Shown here: piece by piece, positions 14,593-50,521 of the stretch | How positions within the stretch are numbered: position 1 is the first letter of the stretch | Layout of the letters: each line of letters begins with the position of its first letter | Assembly (NCBI GenBank): GCA_045628045.1 | Contig: JAZQOV010000006.1 | Coordinates: 16,116 to 80,115, forward strand | Direction: 5' to 3' | Origin: Bacilli bacterium | GTDB taxonomy: Bacteria; Bacillota_I; Bacilli_A; RFN20; CAG-826 | Length of the DNA: 64,000 nucleotides | The notes under the pieces: generated by a model | Told to the model about the DNA's origin: nothing | Seen by the model: only the letters and a program-made list of their open reading frames with translations | Databases searched by the model: none | Translations under genes and position numbers: made by a program

Positions 14593-14884
14593 AAAAATAA
14601 TTGTTACTTATTGTTACTTCGGTTAAAGTCATACAATATTGTCTTATAAAAATTCTATTCATCTTTTATATAATCCATTATTAATAAACTGAAACAAGTT
14701 GATATGACTTGATACGCGATTAATTTGATTATTTTAGAATATATTTAAAACCTCATAATTTTTTGCCTTTATAAATAGCTCAAGCATTCCGAAATGTTAA
14801 AAATATAATAAAAAACACCCATTTTTAGGGCATTTTCTATGAATTCCACCTTTGATTCATTGTATCAAAGTATGTCTTCTAATC

Positions 14885-14958
14885 TGGTGCCTCCACGCAG
14901 AATCGAACTACGGATTGATCCTTACCATGGATCCGTTATACCATTTAACTATGGAGGC
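14885..14958 (-). tRNA. tRNA-Thr (GGT)
   Basis: Reverse complement GCCTCCATAGTTAAATGGTATAACGGATCCATGGTAAGGATCAATCCGTAGTTCGATTCTGCGTGGAGGCACCA. Anticodon stem GATCC/GGATC, loop ATGGTAA, T-loop TTCGATT. Confidence 0.85.
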
Positions 14959-41187: not shown

Positions 41188-41248
41188 CATCTAACGCTTT
41201 TAATGCTTTTTAGTTTTTTGATAATTTTTCAACTCTAATAATTTCCAT
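41188..41248 (-). pseudogene. Remnant of the first ~20 codons of the ABC ATPase gene (copy of 47030-47090), with an in-frame stop
   Basis: Minus strand reads ATGGAAATTATTAGAGTTGAAAAATTATCAAAAAACTAA..., that is MEIIRVEKLSKN*. The intact gene has MEIIRVEKLSKNYKALKALDE. Confidence 0.8.
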
Positions 41249-41378
41249 GCTCTAGCCTTCACGACACGAGCATACAAAAAACAAATTTATTTGTCATAGA
41301 AATTAACTAAGTGGTCTTTTTTGCTAACTATTCGGTAGAAAAAAGCACTGATTTTTGCATCAATGCTGTTGTTTACTA
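41188..41378. repeat. Copy A of a ~190-bp direct repeat (partner at 47030-47218)
   Basis: Aligned by eye at about 90% identity. It covers the ABC gene 5' end, the leader, the promoter region and the terminator hairpin GCACTGAT...ATCAATGC. Confidence 0.8.
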
Positions 41379-41407
41379 ATGCCTCCGTTTACCCATTTTG
41401 ATACACT

Positions 41408-41460
41408 GCATACCCTAGCCTAGTTTTTGCATACCCTAGGTGTTTTTTGCATACCCCTAT
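41408..41460. repeat. Three phased direct repeats TTTGCATACCC(T)
   Basis: GCATACCC starts at 41408, 41429 and 41449, a 20-21 bp period, just 3' of the kinase gene stop. Confidence 0.7.
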
Positions 41461-41985: not shown

Positions 41986-42040
41986 ATCTGTTCCTCACAA
42001 ATCCCGATTTATCGATATCCCGACAAATGCGAATTTCTCT

Positions 42041-42508
42041 TTATCTATGCTTTTCTAAGCGTAGAAGACCTTCTTCATCCGGTACACTAATTCCGTTTTT
42101 ATATGTGTATCCCATTTTTATATAAAAGGGAGTTGCAGTGATCGAGGCAGGTATTTCAATTCTCTTCGCGCGAAGAAAATATTCGTCTTTTTCCAAAGTA
42201 TCTATGATCTTTCTTCCGATTCCTTGCCCGTGATACTCTGGTAAAACAAAGATAGTGAATAAACTACTTTCGTCAACTTTACCCCAGTATGGTCCTATTG
42301 CACCGCAGCCCACAATTTTATCCTCATCGCATACTACATAAAAATGAGTCCATTTTGCGCGTTCCAAGATGTCTTTCGGCTGTAATTTTTGAACATCATT
42401 TTCGATATATTCCCTCGAATAATCTTTGGTGTTGACTTCTCTGAGCGTCCTAACAATCAAAGCTGATACATTTACTGCATCTTCAGGCTCGATTCTTCTG
42501 ATAATCAT
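42041..42508 (-). CDS. GNAT-family N-acetyltransferase
   Basis: 155 aa with the HGQGIGRKII acetyl-CoA-binding block. Confidence 0.8.
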   Translation of the reverse strand: MIIRRIEPEDAVNVSALIVRTLREVNTKDYSREYIENDVQKLQPKDILERAKWTHFYVVCDEDKIVGCGAIGPYWGKVDESSLFTIFVLPEYHGQGIGRKIIDTLEKDEYFLRAKRIEIPASITATPFYIKMGYTYKNGISVPDEEGLLRLEKHR

Positions 42509-42826
42509 TGCATCGCATCCTCATGAATCTCGATTTCTCTCCGTTTATTATACCGGCGATGCAGGGACATTTCTATTGATAAAAACAGCTGGGACACCCC
42601 AACTTCCACAACTTACTCCTCGTGAGATGTGTCTTTCCAAAGGATACTTACGTATTTCTAAAGGCTACCTAGCTGAAGCAAGGATTCTATCAAAAGAGCT
42701 GACTAATTATTCCTTATTTATTAGATTTATAAGAAAAAATGCCCATTTCTGAGCATTTTTGCGGTTTTTCGCATATTCCACTTTGTATCAAAGCATGTAT
42801 ACGATTATGTCTTGCTGCAACGAAGT

Positions 42827-42885
42827 TAATAGTTTTTAACCAAGTGCAACGAAGTTAATGGATCGAACACAACGAAGTTAATATG
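42827..42885. repeat. Three direct copies of the box (G/A)CAACGAAGTTAAT
   Basis: Copies start at 42827, 42846 and 42869, giving spacings of 19 and 23 bp. Confidence 0.75.
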
Positions 42886-43014
42886 TGTTTTCAATCAAAT
42901 GGGCCACTTCAACAATGGTTCAAGTAGCAAGTATGAGACTATTGATGGATACGAAGTAGATAAATATAACTACCAAAATCACACAGTTAATAAGATAAAA
43001 ACATTTAAAAAGAT

Positions 43015-43692
43015 TTAATCATTAACAAAGAATATCGTGTTCTTATCAAATGCCCCATAGGCAAATCCGAAATTAAGGAAGCCGGGCATTTTTTCATATG
43101 CTTTAAATGAAGTTCTATTTATAAATTCATCTACACCAATATTTTCAATATATCCATATGGGTTATAGATGGTGACGTTATCGTTAGAAATATCAAGGCT
43201 GGTTACTACTGAATAATGAAGCGTCCATTCATTTTCATATTTGGCGGCCCATTCCACGATAACAGGGTTCTGATCTTTTAAAGATTTGAATATTTCTTTT
43301 AAGAGAATATCGTGTTTTAGATATTCGTGTTTATCAAATGATTTTCCTTCAATAAAATTATTGATTTCTTCTAAGAAACCTTTCGATGTTGAGGTAGTAA
43401 TTCTGCCTTTATTCTTTAGACTTAGTTCGTCTTCAGTGATCTTTTGTCCATAGTAGGAGGATACCATTTCAATTGAGGCGTAGCCACAAGAGATATGTTG
43501 TTCAACAAGCTCTATTCCGCTTACTTCTACCTTTTGAGAATAGATGCTGCTATCTTTTAAATAGGAGTAGTCTGATTTTAAAGATGATGTTCTAATTCCT
43601 AGAATTGAAAAAGGAATCGCAAGCGAAAGAGAAATTGCTCCCAAAAAAACACTAGAAATAATAATTGCTAATGTTTTCTTTTTAAGCTTCAT
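43015..43692 (-). CDS. Membrane-anchored C39-like (papain-fold) cysteine peptidase domain protein
   Basis: 225 aa with an N-terminal TM helix. SCGYASIEMVSSYYGQKITEDEL resembles the Peptidase_C39_2 Cys block and WTLHYSVVTSLD..VTIYNPYG the His block. Confidence 0.6.
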   Translation of the reverse strand: MKLKKKTLAIIISSVFLGAISLSLAIPFSILGIRTSSLKSDYSYLKDSSIYSQKVEVSGIELVEQHISCGYASIEMVSSYYGQKITEDELSLKNKGRITTSTSKGFLEEINNFIEGKSFDKHEYLKHDILLKEIFKSLKDQNPVIVEWAAKYENEWTLHYSVVTSLDISNDNVTIYNPYGYIENIGVDEFINRTSFKAYEKMPGFLNFGFAYGAFDKNTIFFVND

Positions 43693-43888
43693 ATTTATAC
43701 TCCAAAATATCGGCAGGTTGACAATTCAATTCTTTGCACAAAGCATTTAAAGTGGAAAATCGAATTGCTGAAATTTTACCTGTTTTTATGTTGGACAAAT
43801 TCGCGTCCGTCAAGCCGATTTTTACTGCAAGATCTTTCAGTTTTACACCGCGCTCTTTCATTACTTTATCTAATTTTAATACTATCAT
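43682..43888 (-). CDS. YozG-type small XRE-family HTH regulator
   Basis: 68 aa. MIVLKLDKVMKERGVKLKDLAVKIGLTDANLSNIKTGK..RFSTLNALCKELNCQPADILEY matches the YozG-like layout. ATGA overlap with the upstream gene. Confidence 0.8.
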   Translation of the reverse strand: MIVLKLDKVMKERGVKLKDLAVKIGLTDANLSNIKTGKISAIRFSTLNALCKELNCQPADILEYKYEA

Positions 43889-44376
43889 AATGTTTCGTCG
43901 TCATTCTTTTGTAATTCTTTGCCGTATTTGAAAAACAAACCAAAAATAAACATAACAATACCCGATATAACTCCACCAAGAGAAATTGGGAAGATCAATT
44001 CGGTTGTAGGGTAGATAATACGTAAAACTGTTGAGCCGACAAGCGCAGGAACAACCGAAATAAGTATTACGAATATAGCAATCTTTTTCAAATAGTGACT
44101 TACTTTTTCTCCAAACGGGGCTTTTTCTTGTTCTATGCTTTTGAAAAGGCTTTCTAGATTCCAAAGCAACCCGATACATATAAACGCATATAAAGCAAGC
44201 GTACCAAATATGCTTGCAGTTTCCGCAACGGAAAGTTCTTTAATTGCATTTGTACATGACAGCGCAATCGTCAAAGCGATAAAAACCAAACACGCTGCAC
44301 AACTTACAAAATAAAGAACTTTCGTTACTATGTAACACACTTTTGCAGTTTTGATAATTTTGTTTTTTGTTTCCAT
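43885..44376 (-). CDS. DUF2975-like membrane protein
   Basis: 163 aa with 4 TM segments. It lies directly upstream of a YozG-type HTH, as in the B. subtilis yoaS-yozG arrangement. Confidence 0.55.
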   Translation of the reverse strand: METKNKIIKTAKVCYIVTKVLYFVSCAACLVFIALTIALSCTNAIKELSVAETASIFGTLALYAFICIGLLWNLESLFKSIEQEKAPFGEKVSHYLKKIAIFVILISVVPALVGSTVLRIIYPTTELIFPISLGGVISGIVMFIFGLFFKYGKELQKNDDETL

Positions 44377-44625
44377 AATGAAATTTCCTTTGTTTTAATT
44401 ACCAATATATTAGCGCAAAATTATCGTTTATCAATATTTTTTATCGTTTATCAATAATTTTTTGAAAGCAAATAATGCAAAACTTTAAGAAATTATCATT
44501 CTTATGGCATAACGCACTATGTTTTATAAAAGAAACAATAAACTAAATATGCCATAAATAATGAAAAAAGCCTTGATTTTAGTGTTTTCAACTGTATCAA
44601 AGCTTTAGTCTACATTTGTCTTTGT

Positions 44626-44643
44626 GCAAATAAGTTGATATAT
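44626..44643. repeat. Single copy of the GCAA(A/C)(T/G)AAGTTGATATAT box
   Basis: TTTGTCTTTGTGCAAATAAGTTGATATAT aligns with the 47222-47248 and 49474-49499 cores. Confidence 0.6.
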
Positions 44644-44679
44644 AAATTTGAGGTTCTTGACGCTCATTATTATACATCT

Positions 44680-45123
44680 TTATTCTTTATTCATTTCATT
44701 AAGCTTATTGTTCATTTTCTTTACTGTTTTCTTTGAAACAAGATAGATAATTATCCAAATAATGATAAACGCTCCAATAAATGCTGAAGAATAAATGAGA
44801 ATCACAATTGGTTTAAGCGGAATCCAATTGTTAATCAAATATCCAGCTGTATATACAGTGTAAAGTGATACACCTTGAAAAAACGCAGACTTAAATGGCG
44901 ACCATTTTTCAATTTGAGGGAATACACTACTACCAGCATGAACAAACGCAATCACGTATGTTGTAATAATCGCAGAACAAATCTGATATACAGATAATTC
45001 CACTTTTACTCCTGACCACTCTAGAATTAAATAAATAATTGCAAGAATAATTGGACCAAAGCCCGCAAAGATTAATCCGCGGAGCAAATAACTTTTTACA
45101 TATTTGTTCATGTTATAAGCCAA
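44680..45123 (-). CDS. DUF3021-like membrane protein (candidate membrane partner of the LytTR regulator)
   Basis: 147 aa with 4 TM segments. It overlaps the LytTR gene end by 11 nt. Confidence 0.55.
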   Translation of the reverse strand: MAYNMNKYVKSYLLRGLIFAGFGPIILAIIYLILEWSGVKVELSVYQICSAIITTYVIAFVHAGSSVFPQIEKWSPFKSAFFQGVSLYTVYTAGYLINNWIPLKPIVILIYSSAFIGAFIIIWIIIYLVSKKTVKKMNNKLNEMNKE

Positions 45124-45547
45124 TCCTTTCTTTCACGTGTTTTAATTCTCTACGAGAAATATAATCTTTGTATCCATTTTTGAAAATAACCAAAGTGGCG
45201 CCACCAATAGAGGTTTTGAATTCTTTCATTTGTTTAATGTTTGCTAAACAAGATTGATTTAGCTTAACGAAATATTCATTAAAAGGCATATCCTCAAGTT
45301 GATATAGTCTTTCTTTAAGTTGATATTTCTTTTCACCGATTAAAGCGAAGATTTTTCCGCCTTCCACAATGAAACAAGTAACTTCAATTGGATCAATCAA
45401 GATAGTAGTATCTTCATAGGTGCCAGTTAAAGAAACACCTGTTGAAGAAACTAGTTTTTCAATCTCTTCCACTAAAGAAGTTTTTTCCTTCGCGTAGATG
45501 ACTACTTTTTCTTCTTGTTTATCGTCGATAAATGTATAACATTTCAT
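45113..45547 (-). CDS. Stand-alone LytTR-domain DNA-binding protein (no receiver domain)
   Basis: 144 aa. The C-terminal block FVKLNQSCLANIKQMKEF...LVIFKNGYKDYISRRELKHVKERIG has the LytTR layout. Confidence 0.7.
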   Translation of the reverse strand: MKCYTFIDDKQEEKVVIYAKEKTSLVEEIEKLVSSTGVSLTGTYEDTTILIDPIEVTCFIVEGGKIFALIGEKKYQLKERLYQLEDMPFNEYFVKLNQSCLANIKQMKEFKTSIGGATLVIFKNGYKDYISRRELKHVKERIGL

Positions 45548-45561
45548 GTTTTAATTATATA

Positions 45562-46374
45562 TTAGCTGATATCTTTTTTCATTTTATTTGTGAAAACAAA
45601 CAATGACAAACTAACAAGCACTATCATATAGGCAAGCATTAAGACTAAATATAAGGTTCCACGATCACTGAAATTATAAATAACAGGATTAAATGTGGTT
45701 GCTTCATCAATTGAAGTCTGAGTTGCGCCTGTAATACATCTACCTAAATAAGTAGATTCATAGAAAGGCAAGAAACCACAAGCTTTTTCAAAATTTCCCA
45801 TTGTGTCTAATGGAATCCACGCACCACCCAAGATGCCAGATGCAGAAATGAATATTGATGATACTGCAGGTGAGCTTTTGTCATTCAAAATTGTTCCAAA
45901 TATCATGCCTAATGAGATGCAAATAATCATCATTGGAAACATTTCAATAAACAACAAGCATGCATTGCCAAAACCAACAAAACCTCTGCCACTTATTAAT
46001 CCAGATATATACCCAGAAACAATACAAATAACGGTTTGACATAATCCAACAATAATAAAAGGAATTAAATATCCCAATATGAATTGATATGCTTTAAGAG
46101 GCGAAGAAAATAGTCTCTTCAAGAAAGCGCTCTCTCTATCTTTTGATATGAGCAAAGAAGACATCAACATTAATAAGGAATAGCTAAACATAACAACCCC
46201 TGGAATTAAGCTCTTTTCATAGAAGATAGGGCTTTGTCCATCAGGTATATAATGTAAAATTACATTAAACATCAAAATCATAAAGATAGGAAACCCAACA
46301 CAAAAGATATATAAAAGAGGATCTCTAATCATTTCAGTTAGGTTTCTTTTTGTAAACAATATTGCCTTTTTCAT
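45562..46374 (-). CDS. ABC-2 type exporter permease
   Basis: 270 aa with 6 TM segments. Its start overlaps the ATPase stop. Confidence 0.75.
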   Translation of the reverse strand: MKKAILFTKRNLTEMIRDPLLYIFCVGFPIFMILMFNVILHYIPDGQSPIFYEKSLIPGVVMFSYSLLMLMSSLLISKDRESAFLKRLFSSPLKAYQFILGYLIPFIIVGLCQTVICIVSGYISGLISGRGFVGFGNACLLFIEMFPMMIICISLGMIFGTILNDKSSPAVSSIFISASGILGGAWIPLDTMGNFEKACGFLPFYESTYLGRCITGATQTSIDEATTFNPVIYNFSDRGTLYLVLMLAYMIVLVSLSLFVFTNKMKKDIS

Positions 46375-47090
46375 TATTTGATATCTCCTCCTACAATCTT
46401 CACAAACGCTTCTTCAAATGAGTTTTCTTTTGTGTGTTCTTTTATTTCCTCTACAGTGCCTATATCTAATAGATGACCACTACTTAAAATCGCTACTCTA
46501 TCACATAAAGCTTCAATTTCTTCTAAATAGTGAGAAGTTAATACAATCGTCGTCTTTCCTTTCAAGGATTTAATAACTTCCCATAATTCTCTTCTGATGA
46601 GAACATCGAGTCCTAAAGTAGGCTCATCAAGGAAAAGAATCTTTGGTTTAGAAATAAGCGCTACTGCGATTGACAATCTTCTTTGCCAACCGCCTGATAA
46701 AGTCTTTACTCTTTTGTTCAGAATTTCTTTTAAAGAAAAAGAATCCACTATCTTATTAAAATATTCTTCATCGTGACTCCCATATAGGCTCTCAAAGAAG
46801 AACAAGTTCTCTTTCACAGTCAAATTCATTGCCACAGATATTTCTTGCGGAGAAATGTCTATAATCTTCTTTATTTCATCTATTTCGCTTAATGGATGAC
46901 CATCAACCACTGCATCTCCACCACTTTTCTTAGCTAATCCAGATAAAATTCTAATCAATGTTGTTTTTCCGGCACCATTAACGCCTAGTAATCCAAATAA
47001 CTCACCTTCTTTTATAGAAAGAGATACTTCATCTAACGCTTTTAATGCTTTATAGTTCTTTGATAATTTTTCAACTCTAATAATTTCCAT
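46374..47090 (-). CDS. ABC transporter ATP-binding protein (DrrA/CcmA-like exporter ATPase)
   Basis: 238 aa with Walker A GVNGAGKTT, signature LSGGWQRRL and Walker B ILFLDEPT. GGAGG RBS. Confidence 0.9.
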   Translation of the reverse strand: MEIIRVEKLSKNYKALKALDEVSLSIKEGELFGLLGVNGAGKTTLIRILSGLAKKSGGDAVVDGHPLSEIDEIKKIIDISPQEISVAMNLTVKENLFFFESLYGSHDEEYFNKIVDSFSLKEILNKRVKTLSGGWQRRLSIAVALISKPKILFLDEPTLGLDVLIRRELWEVIKSLKGKTTIVLTSHYLEEIEALCDRVAILSSGHLLDIGTVEEIKEHTKENSFEEAFVKIVGGDIK

Positions 47091-47218
47091 GCTCTAGCCT
47101 CCACGACACGAGCATACAAAAAAACAAATTCATTTGTCGCAGAAATTAACTAAGTGGCCTTTTTTGCTCACTATTCGGTAGAAAAAAGCACTGATTTTGT
47201 ATCAATGCTATTGTTTCC
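47030..47218. repeat. Copy B of the ~190-bp direct repeat (partner at 41188-41378)
   Basis: See copy A. This copy is attached to the intact ABC ATPase gene. Confidence 0.8.
47182..47208 (-). terminator. Terminator after the XRE-TM gene
   Basis: Minus strand reads GCATTGAT-ACAAA-ATCAGTGC followed by TTTTTT. Confidence 0.6.
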
Positions 47219-47230
47219 TTATGTGTTTGT

Positions 47231-47270
47231 GCAACGATGTTGATATATCAGTGAAACGAAGTTGATATAT
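47231..47270. repeat. Two direct copies of the G(C/A)AACGA(T/A)GTTGATATAT box
   Basis: Copies at 47231-47248 and 47253-47270, a 22-bp period. The second overlaps the last codons of the XRE-TM ORF. Confidence 0.75.
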
Positions 47271-48279
47271 GTTTTTTACTCTTTTTATAATTTACAATAC
47301 CAAAGATCAATAAAACAAAAGAAGCCATAATGCCTGCAGCAGCAACTATTAAAGCAACATTCCCGTTGCTGTAGTTATTCCAATCAACAAAATTAACTTG
47401 ATAACAATTTGTGACTCCACCCAATAAATAATTTAAAAATCCATTTAATCCAAATGCAAATAGTGTCGAGACAAATACAATAGCACTACCTTTAAAACAT
47501 TTGTTTATCGGAATTAAACTTAATCCACCACTAATCAAAATTGGAAGAACAACATAAGTCGTTATTTCAATTCCTAAAACAAAATCATAGGATGCATATG
47601 AATTTATAACTGCAAGTAATGAAATGATCAATAAATATATAGTTCCAAAATAAATCAAAACAAAGAACTTTTTGAGTTTTTTAAATACCTCATATCGGTA
47701 GAAAATAAATGGAAAGAAAAGCATAAAATATCCAAGAATTACCGCTAATATTGCAAGAAAACACCAATAATTTGAAACATAGATTGAGCATGTCAAAAAC
47801 AAGATAAACATACTTAATAAAGTTAAACTAACAAACCAAAGTAATTTGTGTTTTTTAAATATTTTTGTAACTAATGGAGCATAGAAACTGTCTCCGCATA
47901 AACAAGCTGTTAATACAATCCAGAACCAAGAAAGCGTTTTGTTTACTGCTAGGTTAACAATAAAGCAAATAAGCACTGCTAAGGCCATCAAACCTGAAAC
48001 AATCAGAAAACCTAAAAGATTCCCGTTTTCAATCTTGTTTAATTTCCTTTTTGCGTTCCTATAATCTTGATCTTCGCACGCGGCGAAAAGTTCATGTTCT
48101 GAAATTCCTAATGTTTCGCATAACTTTGTTATTATTGAATTATCGGGAAAAGTTTTGCCTCTTTCCCATTTTGAAACTGTAGTAACATCAACAAATAAAA
48201 TATCAGCAAGTTCTTGTTGAGTTATCTTTTTGTTTATTCTTTTTTGACGAATAAACGAACCAACTTTTTCATAGTCCAT
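47248..48279 (-). CDS. XRE-family HTH regulator fused to an ~8-TM membrane domain
   Basis: HTH KKITQQELADILFVDVTTVSKWERG followed by many hydrophobic segments. AGGAGG precedes ATG 48279 by 7 nt; the ORF track starts at 48297. Confidence 0.75.
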   Translation of the reverse strand: MDYEKVGSFIRQKRINKKITQQELADILFVDVTTVSKWERGKTFPDNSIITKLCETLGISEHELFAACEDQDYRNAKRKLNKIENGNLLGFLIVSGLMALAVLICFIVNLAVNKTLSWFWIVLTACLCGDSFYAPLVTKIFKKHKLLWFVSLTLLSMFILFLTCSIYVSNYWCFLAILAVILGYFMLFFPFIFYRYEVFKKLKKFFVLIYFGTIYLLIISLLAVINSYASYDFVLGIEITTYVVLPILISGGLSLIPINKCFKGSAIVFVSTLFAFGLNGFLNYLLGGVTNCYQVNFVDWNNYSNGNVALIVAAAGIMASFVLLIFGIVNYKKSKKHISTSFH

Positions 48280-48357
48280 ACTAGAACCTCCTAACATAAA
48301 TATAATAAATGCAATAAATTATGGTTATGGCGTGTAATTCAACATACTTGTTGATAA

Positions 48358-49353
48358 TTATATTTTCTTATATCTTTGAATCTTGCTTGTAGGTTTGTCT
48401 GGAAATTCCATTTCAATTAATCCGAGTTTAATAGCAGGATCTAAATAATTCTTTCTAAAGTTTGCTCTATCAGAAAGTTTTAGTAACCGTTGAATTTCCT
48501 TACTTGTGTACCATTTATTTTGAATAAGAGTTTTCAATAATTTGTTCAAATAAACATTGGTATTATTAATTGTTAAAGATGTTTCTGAAATTAATTCTGT
48601 AATTGATAAATCAATCATTTTTAGCATAAATGCTATAAAAACTGTAGAATCACCATTTTTATTAGATTGAGCAATTGCTTCATAATATTCAGCCTGATAT
48701 TTCTTAATTAATGATTCAATTGGAATAAATTCAAATATAGGTTTCCACTTACTTAATATTAAATTCTGCCACAATCTAGCCATTCTTCCGTTTCCATCTC
48801 CAAACGGATGAATAAAAACAAATTCATAATGAAAAACTGAAGACAAAATTAAAGTATTTATAACATTGAAATTTTCTTTAGTCCAAAGAAACAAATTAGA
48901 CATTAATTCTGGAACCATTTTTCCTGGAGGTGCAATAAAAATTACATTTCCGCTTCCATCAACTATGCCTTCACCACCTGTTCTATATTTTCCAGGATTT
49001 TTTACAACATCTTTTGTCATCACCAAATGAACAGATTTTAAATCAACTTCAGAAAATGGATTTTTATCAAATGCTACATCATAAGCTTTAATAGCATTTT
49101 TGATTTCTAAAATGTCTTTGCTAGGTCCAACTACTTTATGACCATTTATTACATCCTCTACTTGGCCTAAGGATAATGAATTCGCTTCAATTGCACAGCT
49201 AGACTGGATTGATTTAATTCTATTTTGCTTTCTTAGCATCGGAAACTTTGAAAGATTACTAAAAGAAGAAATACTTCCCATCTTTTCCATAATAGAAGAA
49301 ACATATTCTAGTATTTCATTTGTCAAAACAAATGGCGGTGCATATTTTTCCAT
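48358..49353 (-). CDS. Fic-family protein (AMPylase-type) with an N-terminal Fic_N region and a C-terminal winged-helix-like tail
   Basis: 331 aa. Active-site motif HPFGDGNGRMARL. The putative inhibitory-helix block SSCAIEAN is related to S-x-x-I-E-G-N. Confidence 0.85.
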   Translation of the reverse strand: MEKYAPPFVLTNEILEYVSSIMEKMGSISSFSNLSKFPMLRKQNRIKSIQSSCAIEANSLSLGQVEDVINGHKVVGPSKDILEIKNAIKAYDVAFDKNPFSEVDLKSVHLVMTKDVVKNPGKYRTGGEGIVDGSGNVIFIAPPGKMVPELMSNLFLWTKENFNVINTLILSSVFHYEFVFIHPFGDGNGRMARLWQNLILSKWKPIFEFIPIESLIKKYQAEYYEAIAQSNKNGDSTVFIAFMLKMIDLSITELISETSLTINNTNVYLNKLLKTLIQNKWYTSKEIQRLLKLSDRANFRKNYLDPAIKLGLIEMEFPDKPTSKIQRYKKI

Positions 49354-49390
49354 AAGAACATTATACCATTATTTCTTCATATTGCAACAT

Positions 49391-49425
49391 TATCTTGTAG
49401 GGTATCTTGTAGGGTATCTTGTAGG
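49391..49425. repeat. Tandem 12-bp repeat TATCTTGTAGGG, about 2.9 units, just upstream of the fic promoter
   Basis: Units at 49391-49402, 49403-49414 and 49415-49425. The last is truncated. Confidence 0.85.
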
Positions 49426-49429
49426 AAAT

Positions 49430-49459
49430 AAAAAAATAGTTAATACTAAGTATTAACTA
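49430..49459 (-). terminator. Terminator after the YwaF-like gene
   Basis: Minus strand reads TAGTTAATACT-T-AGTATTAACTA (11-bp arms) followed by TTTTTTT. Confidence 0.6.
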
Positions 49460-49482
49460 CTAATCTAACTAAGTGTGTTTGC

Positions 49483-49532
49483 GCAACGAAGTTGATATGC
49501 GCTGCATGTCAGTGAAAGGAAGTTGATATATG
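49483..49532. repeat. Two direct copies of the GCAACGAAGTTGATAT / GAAAGGAAGTTGATATAT box
   Basis: Copies start at 49483 and 49514. The flank GTGTGTTTGCGCAACGAAGTTGATAT aligns with 47225-47248. Confidence 0.75.
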
Positions 49533-49590
49533 ATTTTCGTGTTTTCTGACACTAAAATAATACAATTATAACTTATTATTTTAAAAAAGT

Positions 49591-50373
49591 TTAAACTTTT
49601 TTAATTATTTTGTTGCGAATAATCTTGTAGACATAGAATGCAACTATTAACACGACAAATATTAAAATTACAACTACACTATAAAGAGGTTTTATTCCAC
49701 CAACCATATTCCAAAATATGCTATAAGGCGTTCCATCATGTCTTTCTAAGAACATGTAGTTTGTGGTTTGAGAGAACATGTTTGTAATGTGTGCTAGTAA
49801 AGCAATAATAAATAACATAACTAAGGTTTTCCATATATTTTTTAGCTTTAGTTTTGCCATACCAGTAATGCCTATAAATAACGAAGCAAAACAAGAAATG
49901 CAATGCGTTATAGCACTTACGACATTATCGAAAGCTAGAACCGGATAGACAGAATAGTTTTGCGCTGCCCCAATTGTGCCTAAAACACCAGCGATAAAGC
50001 CAAATATAAGGATGAAATCTAATGATGCTTCTTTAATCCTACCTTTGGTAAAAGCTGCTAAAGGTAAGGCTATAAGCATCATTGAACATAAATATAGAGG
50101 CAATACATTTAATAATGTATGAGGTACATCATCGCTACGTAAACAGAAAATAATTATTTTAAAAATCTCAAAAGAATCGATAGCAATTGCAGATATAATT
50201 ATTACTCTATTTTGAATCTTTTCATTCTTTTTATATTTAATTCCAAGGAATATTCCTAAAAAGAGGGCAATAGACACCATGATTGATGTAAACAAAATAT
50301 GCTGCCAACTCCAAGCACCTTCTGCTTCCTTCCAGAAACCACCAAAGCCAAAGAAATCACCAAATATTTTCAT
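49591..50373 (-). CDS. YwaF/TIGR02206-like integral membrane protein
   Basis: 260 aa with about 7 TM segments, including an LPLYLCSM block. Confidence 0.5.
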   Translation of the reverse strand: MKIFGDFFGFGGFWKEAEGAWSWQHILFTSIMVSIALFLGIFLGIKYKKNEKIQNRVIIISAIAIDSFEIFKIIIFCLRSDDVPHTLLNVLPLYLCSMMLIALPLAAFTKGRIKEASLDFILIFGFIAGVLGTIGAAQNYSVYPVLAFDNVVSAITHCISCFASLFIGITGMAKLKLKNIWKTLVMLFIIALLAHITNMFSQTTNYMFLERHDGTPYSIFWNMVGGIKPLYSVVVILIFVVLIVAFYVYKIIRNKIIKKV

Positions 50374-50397
50374 AATTGAATATTATAGACTCAATTA

Positions 50398-50434
50398 AGA
50401 AAAAAAGAAAAACAGGATTATTGATAACCCTGTT
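50398..50434 (-). terminator. Terminator after tRNA-Arg
   Basis: Minus strand reads AACAGG-(12-nt loop)-CCTGTT followed by TTTCTTTTTT. Confidence 0.45.
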
Positions 50435-50444
50435 ATATTTGTGA

Positions 50445-50521
<77 letters not shown>

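Follow-up and report, generated by a model that had tools for sequence, protein, structure and literature searches.

Phased box repeats in the accessory gene block of a Bacilli bacterium genome as probable ends of tRNA-associated gene cassettes

The stretch of DNA analysed here (the window, 64,000 nucleotides) covers positions 16116-80115 of contig C6 in a Bacilli bacterium genome of 1.07 Mb, which has 33% G+C and is assembled in 14 contigs. This genome is designated below as the present one or G000, while other genomes, loci and contigs carry G, L and C numbers, respectively. All genes of the accessory block (region 42000-50500) are encoded on the minus strand and follow each other in the order TMEM164; Fic and XRE-TM; ABC ATPase, ABC-2 permease, LytTR and DUF3021; DUF2975, HTH_26 and C39-like peptidase; GNAT and a kinase-like gene. 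The original prediction placed four composite loci, each made of a hairpin and copies of a short box, in this block, and all four are present at the coordinates given there. The features required for further consideration are listed below, with the word "cassette" used for gene groups in the sense proposed later in the text.

14806..14884, minus strand: copy of a module of the M_GNAT type, immediately adjoining the CCA end of tRNA-Thr (14885-14958)
41188..41379, minus strand: duplicate of module M_ABC, extending through the leader into the ABC ATPase gene (its first 20 codons), as aligned to 47030-47221
41380..41457, minus strand: cassette end of the second repeat family, TGCCTCCGTTTACCCATTTTGATACACT and then three GCATACCC at 21 and 20 bp, closing the GNAT and kinase cassette
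42733..42807, minus strand: module M_GNAT, opening the GNAT cassette
42808..42885, minus strand: box unit C6a, which closes cassette 4 distally and has three boxes spaced by 29 and 23 bp
44570..44616, minus strand: terminator module opening cassette 4 (DUF2975, HTH_26, C39-like peptidase)
44617..44643, minus strand: box unit C6b, one degenerate box, distal end of cassette 3
47182..47221, minus strand: terminator module M_ABC (^TAAGGAAACAATAGCATTGATACAAAATCAGTGCTTTTTT), opening cassette 3 (ABC-2 exporter, LytTR, DUF3021)
47222..47270, minus strand: box unit C6c, two boxes, distal end of cassette 2 (Fic and XRE-TM)
47222-47227, 47229-47246 and 47251-47268, minus strand: TGTGTT, box 1 and box 2 of C6c, reading ...TATCAACATCGTTGCACAAACACA^ in gene sense
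49430..49473, minus strand: terminator module (^CTTAGTTAGATTAGTAGTTAATACTTAGTATTAACTATTTTTTT) opening cassette 2
49474..49532, minus strand: box unit C6d, which closes cassette 1 (TMEM164-family gene) distally and has two boxes with a spacing of 31 bp
50445..50521, minus strand: tRNA-Arg(tct), to which the array is anchored and whose CCA end is immediately followed by cassette 1

A pattern scan of both strands of the window revealed nine copies of ACGAAGTTRATA with no more than one mismatch, all of them on the plus strand between 42820 and 49528. If two mismatches were allowed, 46 matches were registered in the whole window against 16.9 expected, and none of 100 shuffled sequences reached 46. 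Alignment of the repeats brought into register six copies of the 25-nt unit TGT(C/G)TT-NNN-GCAACGAAGTTRATAT, which start at positions 42808, 44617, 47222, 47244, 49474 and 49505. The observation of repeated boxes is real and confirmed. The outer end of box units is sharp at TGT(C/G)TT, 9 nt before box 1; in gene sense (minus strand) all units end with ...(A/C)(A/G)ACA, and the following base opens a module composed of a spacer and a terminator. The hairpins, initially recognized as terminators by their sequence, proved to be minus-strand terminators in a terminator scan (47209-47187, 41367-41344 and 50434-50411). The XRE-TM reading frame (47248-48297), which was expected to run into the box, does terminate there as ...HISTSFH, with its stop codon inside unit C6c. 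This unit is a two-box derivative of the three-box form, and its three-box homologue lies at G361:C35 (L158). As for the spacings of 19 and 23 bp originally ascribed to the three-box locus 1, the latter value held and the former did not, the start-to-start distances being 29 and 23 bp.

The element was predicted for four loci of the accessory block, where it is certainly present, but it is not confined to this block. Three further three-box arrays of the present genome (C3:93395, C3:94143 and C3:96131, with spacings of 30 and 22-24 bp) have the same TTGTCTTGCTGC lead-in and ATATGTTTTT tail as the copies in the window, and the genome contains seven box units in total, four of which are inside the window. 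A search with a model for additional copies, suggested as a check along with the prediction, gave positive results: the unit of ~90 bp, which comprises TGTCTT, three boxes (spaced by ~30 and ~23 bp) and ATAT, was found in 10 of 401 genomes of the order, distributed among seven genera of one family, and the sequence-only model R1 detected it in 2 of 24 genomes of the same genus. Exact-pattern scans registered the unit in several uncultured gut "Bacilli bacterium" genomes and in a few metagenome contigs. The number of copies per genome varies from one to seven, with mostly one to three in genomes other than the present one. In divergent variants the box is altered (GTAATGAAGTTAATA in G397 and GTAACGGAGTTAATA in G347), but its number (three), the 30/23 spacing, the TGTGTT end and the following hairpin are retained. 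Box 1 stays at the fixed distance of 9 nt from the end, and the spacings remain 22-24 and 29-31 bp, while the sequence of the box changes. The 112-bp unit 42810-42920 at C6a is 94.6% identical to its copy in G247 belonging to another genus, and the plus-strand ORF of 38 aa located after locus 1 is not conserved in this genome. Copies of whole cassettes, comprising module, cargo and box array, lie behind different tRNAs and are 92-98% identical across genera, compared with 73-78% for uvrC within the genus. The 181-bp unit gave no match when BLASTed against phage and plasmid collections.

Three functional readings were initially offered for these repeats, and the one considering them as recombination sites or cassette boundaries is supported by the data: the breakpoints of homology coincide exactly with the outer end of box units, and in relatives such a unit forms one terminus of elements with large serine recombinase (LSR) genes. 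In G041, for instance, a segment of 742 bp is 94.9% identical to the present genome, beginning at TGTCTT of unit C3a and stopping after the next hairpin, 6 nt before the next unit. Apart from the boxes and this hairpin, it includes the gene of a PBECR4 nuclease together with the promoter of this gene; both flanks are unrelated. A unit of 156 bp is common to L080, L099 and L103, the adjoining hairpins being unrelated. Inside the window the segment 41188-41379 duplicates 47030-47221, with the homology stopping exactly at the start of boxes, where the duplicate has an array of three GCATACCC. Module M_ABC is found after three different left partners, which are tRNA-Arg in G024 (locus L139, CCA^TAAGGAAATAACAGCATTGATAA...), the boxes of C6c and the GCATACCC array (copy 41340-41379). 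Module S is preceded by boxes in G007 and G043 and by tRNA-Pro in G042; for module H2 the left partners are tRNA-Trp in G007, tRNA-Pro in G043 and boxes in G042. Both modules are identical up to the junction base. M_GNAT is placed directly after tRNA-Arg(cct) in G020, after tRNA-Arg(tct) in G049 and G017 and after the C6a boxes in the window; the copy of this type behind the tRNA-Thr of the window has ~70% identity. All left partners, whether CCA ends of tRNAs, box units or GCATACCC units, end in CA, and a target-site duplication was found at none of the junctions inspected. Since the modules recur after tRNAs and the breakpoints fall at the ends of units, what is inherited together is the module, the cargo and the box unit. 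As the box unit abuts the terminator module of an older cassette, the hairpin and the boxes of each composite locus belong to different cassettes.

Transfer between genera is shown, in particular, by G007 and G043, which belong to different genera: a 4.9-kb segment, placed behind different tRNAs that are both intact, is 97.7% identical in the two genomes. Each of the 37 genomes of the genus has its own flank downstream of tRNA-Arg(tct), with homology invariably stopping at CCA. A complete small cassette resides directly behind tRNA-Arg(cct) in G020, where the M_GNAT module is followed by a gene of the same orientation and a GCATACCC end; at the DNA level only its module (98.6% identical) and the repeat end match the window. 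In G126 the GNAT gene of the window is joined to the GCATACCC end, with 92% identity over 742 bp. Both arrays of the present genome begin at a tRNA, which is Arg(tct) on C6 and Met on C3, and the same is true for L103 and L104. Contig C3 also harbors a classical partial-tRNA island with partial copies of the tRNA-Met 3' end, and such a copy occurs in module S as well.

LSR genes were found in nine of 12 box-positive genomes, and none was detected in the present genome or in two other box-positive ones. The 47.4-kb contig G003:C21 opens with the 3' half of tRNA-Met, which is continued by CCA^TTTAAAA-GAAACGAAGATGATA-hairpin, a converging pair of LSR genes (544 and 571 aa) and ~43 kb of other DNA, and it closes with a three-box unit ...AAGACA^. 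On G007:C26 the same inverted-box end and an LSR pair of the same lengths (544 + 571 aa) directly follow tRNA-Arg(tct), that is, the site occupied in the window. In both contigs the LSR pair is ~190 nt away from the inverted-box end. The single tRNA-proximal box is inverted relative to the three distal ones and is separated from the junction by 9 nt, just as box 1. If the two ends are joined with zero offset around CA, 15 (G003) or 14 (G007) of 22 positions match, which was reached by none of 500 shuffles. The dyad symmetry of window modules with box 1 was not significant (9-11 of 22, P from 0.08 to 0.5), including the module 49430..49473, which has a AGTTAATA half-box at the inverted-end distance (11/22, P=0.08). 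Such a lack of symmetry would fit an origin of these modules from former tRNA trailers, but it adds nothing in favour of the recombination-site reading. The first five nucleotides after CCA differ between the two contigs (TTTAA in G003 and TTCGA in G007), so that the exact position of crossover is uncertain and may be a few bases further in. Linkage of this box family to LSR genes is an observation that rests on these two contigs of relatives. In L080 and L104 an inverted box is found ~85 nt from box 3, and two-ended units of ~180 bp are formed.

The same association was registered for repeats of other sequence. The second family, which is GCATACCC repeated two to four times (TGCATACCC pairs), is present in three bacterial families (19 of 401 genomes) and gave no matches in controls. 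Its layout is constant and includes an A-run, a hairpin, ~12 nt, a 26-nt terminal segment starting with TG and two to four repeats at 20-24 bp. In G274 the GCATACCC array is 50 nt away from the end of two tandem LSR genes, whose products of 447 and 527 aa have Resolvase, Recombinase and Zn-ribbon domains. The third family (GCAACCCCC; TGCAACCCCC in three copies) adjoins a nearly identical LSR pair of 448 and 517 aa on short contigs from five genera. Overall, the distance between LSR pairs and these other repeat families is 50-60 nt in G274 and G044. The present genome has only three genes for tyrosine recombinases, two of which are Xer-like, and all of them are distant from the arrays. The third one (C6:205970-206872) has close orthologues only in G017 and G003 and was rejected as not associated with the element. 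A small resolvase encoded in the array of G043 is without a homologue in G000 and was also discarded.

We consider it probable that box units represent attR-side ends of cassettes resembling the staphylococcal and enterococcal cassette chromosomes (SCC and ECC), which are moved by serine recombinases and stacked behind tRNA genes, with the recombinase itself being absent here. Each composite locus would then be a junction of two horizontally acquired cassettes behind a tRNA gene. Read in gene sense, a cassette would start with the spacer-plus-terminator module, continue with cargo genes transcribed from their own promoters and finish with the box unit, where box 3, box 2 and box 1, placed at ~23 and ~30 bp, are followed by 9 nt and the ...ACA end. 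Newcomers would enter right after the CCA end of the tRNA, displacing older cassettes outward, and autonomous relatives would be those having two tandem LSR genes and a single inverted box at the tRNA-proximal end. When joined, the two ends would give box - 9 nt - CA - 9 nt - inverted box, which in size and symmetry suggests an attP site of serine integrases with CA as a crossover dinucleotide; the predicted circular joint is a three-box unit ...AAGACA connected to (T)TTNNAAAGAAACGAAGATGATA. Judging from this arrangement, LSRs may bind to the boxes and exchange strands at CA, while boxes 2 and 3 are putative accessory binding sites. To our knowledge, the attP sites characterised so far for serine integrases need no phased accessory repeats, so that boxes 2 and 3 have no counterpart in them, which speaks against the proposal. 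Stacking of cassettes implies integration into the tRNA^element junction, i.e. an attL-like site, and canonical serine integrases, as far as we know, avoid such junctions. Since there is no LSR gene in the present genome, its seven box units are either immobile remnants or dependent on a recombinase supplied in trans.

Two other readings that accompanied the original prediction fared worse. According to one of them, boxes serve as operators through which the stand-alone LytTR protein (45113-45547) would control the adjacent cassettes, using repeats phased at ~21 bp. The half-sites recognized by LytTR regulators are ACAGTTAAG for AgrA and TACGTTAAT for PlnC/D, and AAGTTAAT of the boxes resembles them; the phasing of 22-23 bp is also suitable, and the only LytTR gene of the genome is situated within the array. 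However, the PF04397 domain scored above the cut-off in only three of eight element-bearing genomes, with none in G007, which is 95% complete. Homologues of the window's protein were found in only three of 40 relatives, including the element-free G037 with a close homologue, but not the element-bearing G007. The C3 arrays are far from any LytTR gene, the unit is always at the 3' end of operons, and there are neither conserved -35/-10 elements at a fixed distance on either strand nor an enrichment of promoter-like sites over shuffles. As far as computation allows, this reading is largely refuted, and we regard it as highly improbable. The other reading, i.e. a mobile element of MITE or REP type, is in line with the two-ended copies of ~180 bp having an inverted box (L080 and L104), but not with the low copy number (1-7 per genome), the absence of target duplication and the mostly one-ended structure. 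The inverted box is present in only two of ~20 copies, and the copies are clustered behind tRNA genes, which is not what MITE or REP sequences should look like.

The main rival to the cassette-end reading is a small RNA. In this case the unit would be a gene for such RNA, or a source of 3'-UTR-derived RNA, on the minus strand, composed of a promoter, ~25 nt, three UAUUAACUUCGUUGC and a terminator, with repeats that titrate a protein or pair with targets and with sharp ends corresponding to the ends of RNA. Promoter-like sites do occur on the minus strand directly upstream of box 3 (TTGACT-17-TAGAAT in L080, kept in L099 and L103; TTGAAA-17-TATCAT at C3b; TTGCAA-17-TATCAT in L104), and in several copies a good sigma-70 promoter reads through the boxes into the terminator, which always follows them. 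The common G/A variation in boxes is compatible with U-G wobble only in the minus-strand RNA. Nevertheless, promoter-like sites are not enriched over shuffles, equally good ones are found on the plus strand (47262-47291, 11/12; L031 6226-6253, 11/12), and in two copies an upstream ORF enters box 3, leaving no room for a promoter. Terminators are not co-inherited with the boxes, since hairpins are unrelated between units with 91-94% identity and are common to tRNA genes instead. Rfam scans of the window (gathering threshold) and of the C3 region (E-value) returned only tRNAs, a T-box and a fluoride riboswitch, with no match on the boxes, and minimum-free-energy folds of four minus-strand copies have no shared structure. 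Preservation of helical phasing in spite of the drift in box sequence, as well as the location of inverted single boxes next to LSR genes, also argues against the RNA, which we find unlikely. About equally improbable is that the unit marks the end of an element moved by some other enzyme, which may be either a DDE transposase of the Tn7/Mu/Tn552 kind or a tyrosine integrase, possibly host Xer, using boxes as arm-type sites. Elements of the Tn7/Mu/Tn552 kind have 5'-TG...CA-3' ends with several phased binding sites, and the units studied here have a TGT...ACA outer end, with several phased sites at one terminus and a single site at the opposite one. Many box-positive genomes possess only two Xer-like tyrosine recombinases, 10 of the 11 positions in the XerD arm of the dif candidate at C3:11509 agree with box 3 read in gene sense (aTATGTTAACT), and partial tRNA-Met 3' copies in the C3 island and module S are of the classical integrase type. 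On the other hand, target-site duplications were not seen at the junctions, neither a DDE transposase nor a dedicated integrase is encoded beside any array, the third tyrosine recombinase is not element-associated, and the recombinases that do adjoin the ends of elements are LSRs. A dif-like site across the junction was discarded because, in an alignment made by eye, the XerC arm and the central region could not be fitted to the junction together with the XerD arm. Single-strand transposition of the IS200/IS605 type was rejected as well: G000 has no Y1 transposase, and the only IS200-type copy in G007 has ends unrelated to the boxes. Type III toxin-antitoxin modules (ToxIN-like) and a leader or attenuator were abandoned because the downstream genes (GNAT, Fic, ABC transporter, PBECR4, riboswitch-controlled antiporter) are mutually unrelated. 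Finally, attC sites of integrons do not correspond to direct repeats lacking an imperfect palindrome; GTTAATA and GTTGATA do not fit GTTRRRY, and the available tyrosine recombinases are Xer-like and distant.

Going back to serine-recombinase cassettes, their closest analogues are SCCmec and ECC, which are moved by a pair of large serine recombinases, CcrA and CcrB (PMC6222049). The likeness includes two tandem LSR genes (~450 and 520-580 aa; here in relatives), a conserved gene whose 3' end receives insertions in a single orientation, tandem composite arrays with some cassettes devoid of recombinases, a variable cargo of accessory and defence genes, putative att sites of ~50 bp showing dyad symmetry, and even the tendency of recombinase genes to fall on short contigs or at contig ends when genomes are assembled from short reads. 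Unlike SCCmec and ECC, which use rlmH, the elements described here target different tRNA genes (Arg, Met, Pro, Trp, Glu) at their CCA end, and their distal end has two to four phased direct repeats beyond the core site, which belong to at least three sequence families. Their hosts are uncultured gut Bacilli with genomes of ~1 Mb, and a sequence relation to the TATCATAA core is not established. Another analogy is provided by tycheposons, i.e. tRNA-linked islands in which newcomers push older elements outward (bioRxiv 10.1101/2020.12.28.424599). Common features are seeding of islands at tRNA genes, outward displacement by newcomers and the abundance of degenerate recombinase-less remnants with adaptive or defence cargo. 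Tycheposons, however, employ tyrosine recombinases and partial tRNA copies of ~40 nt as att repeats, whereas the elements considered here are joined to the tRNA at its last base, and their boundary is marked by a repeat array of non-tRNA origin.

Integron attC cassettes, including superintegrons with their uniform repeats, are similar in having co-oriented arrays with the newest cassette beside the entry site and a conserved 3'-end site that closes each cassette and may overlap a stop codon. They differ by the attC-type imperfect palindrome, the GTTRRRY core and IntI, all of which are missing here, and the cassettes considered here have their own promoters and terminators and enter at a tRNA gene. 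With phage attP sites of the phiC31, Bxb1 and A118 type the joined ends share a length of ~48 bp, two inverted half-sites, a non-palindromic central dinucleotide and the absence of target duplication. Phage sites, in contrast, are served by a single integrase, have no accessory repeats and normally do not allow integration into attL-like junctions. The variable number of a short box module, the intergenic location and occasional two-ended copies of ~180 bp are reminiscent of pneumococcal BOX elements and MITEs; the low copy number, strict orientation, tRNA-anchored arrays with recombinase genes and the absence of target duplication are not. From SCCmec, ECC and tycheposons, whose layout is otherwise parallel, the elements are set apart by the use of CCA ends of several tRNAs as a target, the phased direct-repeat arrays at the distal end and the existence of at least three families of such arrays. 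The box sites of the present genome are best read as fossilised cassette boundaries of SCC-like, tRNA-targeting elements.

A broader proposal can be made only tentatively. Gut Bacilli may host a serine-recombinase counterpart of the integron, in which paired LSRs recognise the generic 3' end of many tRNAs and insert cassettes exactly at CCA. Arrays of two to four phased accessory repeats, belonging to at least three interchangeable families, would then mark the cassette end and control which junctions recombine, allowing both stacking and mobilisation in trans between genera. Irrespective of this proposal, the stacking of discrete cassettes behind tRNAs would explain how very small genomes of uncultured gut Bacilli gain and exchange genes for defence, toxins and transport without resident integrases. 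If the putative recombinases indeed use the CCA ends of several tRNAs and need the phased repeats, this would be an unusual class of serine integrases with a broad but precise target and built-in cassette logic, which may be of interest both for the biology of mobile elements and for genome-engineering toolkits. From the practical point of view, box arrays may serve as a marker to delimit cassettes in metagenome-assembled genomes, where arrays coincide with contig breaks.

The terminator found after each unit would also end the operon located upstream. A short motif, AACAG, which did not lead to any definable site, is conserved before the hairpins and is rare in generic terminators (15 of 641).

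Around the Fic and XRE-TM genes of the window, two features were read in the sequence next to or within promoter-like elements:
Window 49387-49425, minus strand: three tandem copies of the 12-bp unit CCTACAAGATAC.
Window 47262-47291, plus strand: promoter-like site TTGATA-18-TATAAT, matching at 11 of 12 positions.
The 12-bp triplet directly adjoins the -35 element of the promoter upstream of the Fic gene, which is near-consensus (TTGCAA-16-TATAAT, with TG preceding the second hexamer), and the gene itself has no Shine-Dalgarno sequence. The plus-strand site is the top-scoring promoter-like site of the block and takes its -35 element from box 2. Transcription from it would run into the XRE-TM gene in the antisense direction. 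The three-box homologue of this box unit (L158) does not share the site.

Cassettes on another contig of the source genome, C3, carry leader-like elements, both located in the stretch L031:
L031 5967-6100 (C3 93966-94099): leader, about 110 nt long, that separates the PBECR4 nuclease gene from an extended -10 promoter.
L031 7799-7868: fluoride riboswitch, 33 bits, slightly below the gathering score of 34.
The first of them has no match in Rfam, is kept together with its cassette in genome G041 and precedes a gene devoid of a Shine-Dalgarno sequence; it possibly represents a cis-regulatory RNA not described so far. The riboswitch precedes the gene for a 419-aa membrane transporter, and the two make up a single cassette with a box unit on either side.

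The same contig contains partial copies of a tRNA gene and a candidate dif site:
C3 96285-96306 and 100230-100255: 3' end of tRNA-Met, present as two partial copies, TTCAAATCCTACCTCCGCA.
C3 11509-11536: candidate dif site, ACTTCGCATAA-TGTCTA-TTATGTTAACT.
The two tRNA-Met copies flank a Tsp45I-type restriction-modification islet, an island of the classical integrase style that lies nested within the C3 array. The CCA end of tRNA-Met is followed by a degenerate inverted box, GAAAACGAGACGATC. Of 11 positions in the XerD arm of the candidate dif site, 10 are identical to element box 3; the centre of the site, TGTCTA, is similar to the TGTCTT end of the box unit.

Several cassettes have as their first gene one for a protein of 184-213 aa whose C-terminal part is an XRE-type HTH and whose N-terminal domain is unknown. 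Three copies were read:
L104 4634-5269.
L100 (reverse-complemented) 1851-2492.
L031 10972-11526.
Two of the three adjoin restriction-modification genes. The product may be a controller protein or act in cassette mobility.
Two cassettes have very short hydrophobic ORFs just inside their box units, encoded on the opposite strand to the cargo:
L081 497-562 and L031 6350-6392: MATNSFIIFCFYIFLIIFFLF and MITCLIFIAIMIF.

Box units were also registered on further contigs. A full type-B unit is present on the 3.4-kb contig JAZLGV010000140.1 (L099), binned in a 'Candidatus Gastranaerophilaceae' genome, which could reflect either a binning error or cross-phylum transfer. In a metagenome contig (L102) and an IMG/VR contig (L105) a two-box unit has the end of an IS3-family transposase gene immediately on its left, where the gene seems to have replaced box 1; this 8.5-kb sequence is also filed as a viral contig.

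Finally, at least five genera share a near-identical pair of large serine recombinase genes (448 and 517 aa), which in most cases lies on a contig of 2-5 kb:
L186-L191: G397 C20, G044 C21 and C9, G247 C33, G417 C34, G361 C45.
On the G044 contigs the pair adjoins a third repeat family, three copies of TGCAACCCCC, which has the terminal ...TGATACAAT motif in common with the GCATACCC family.
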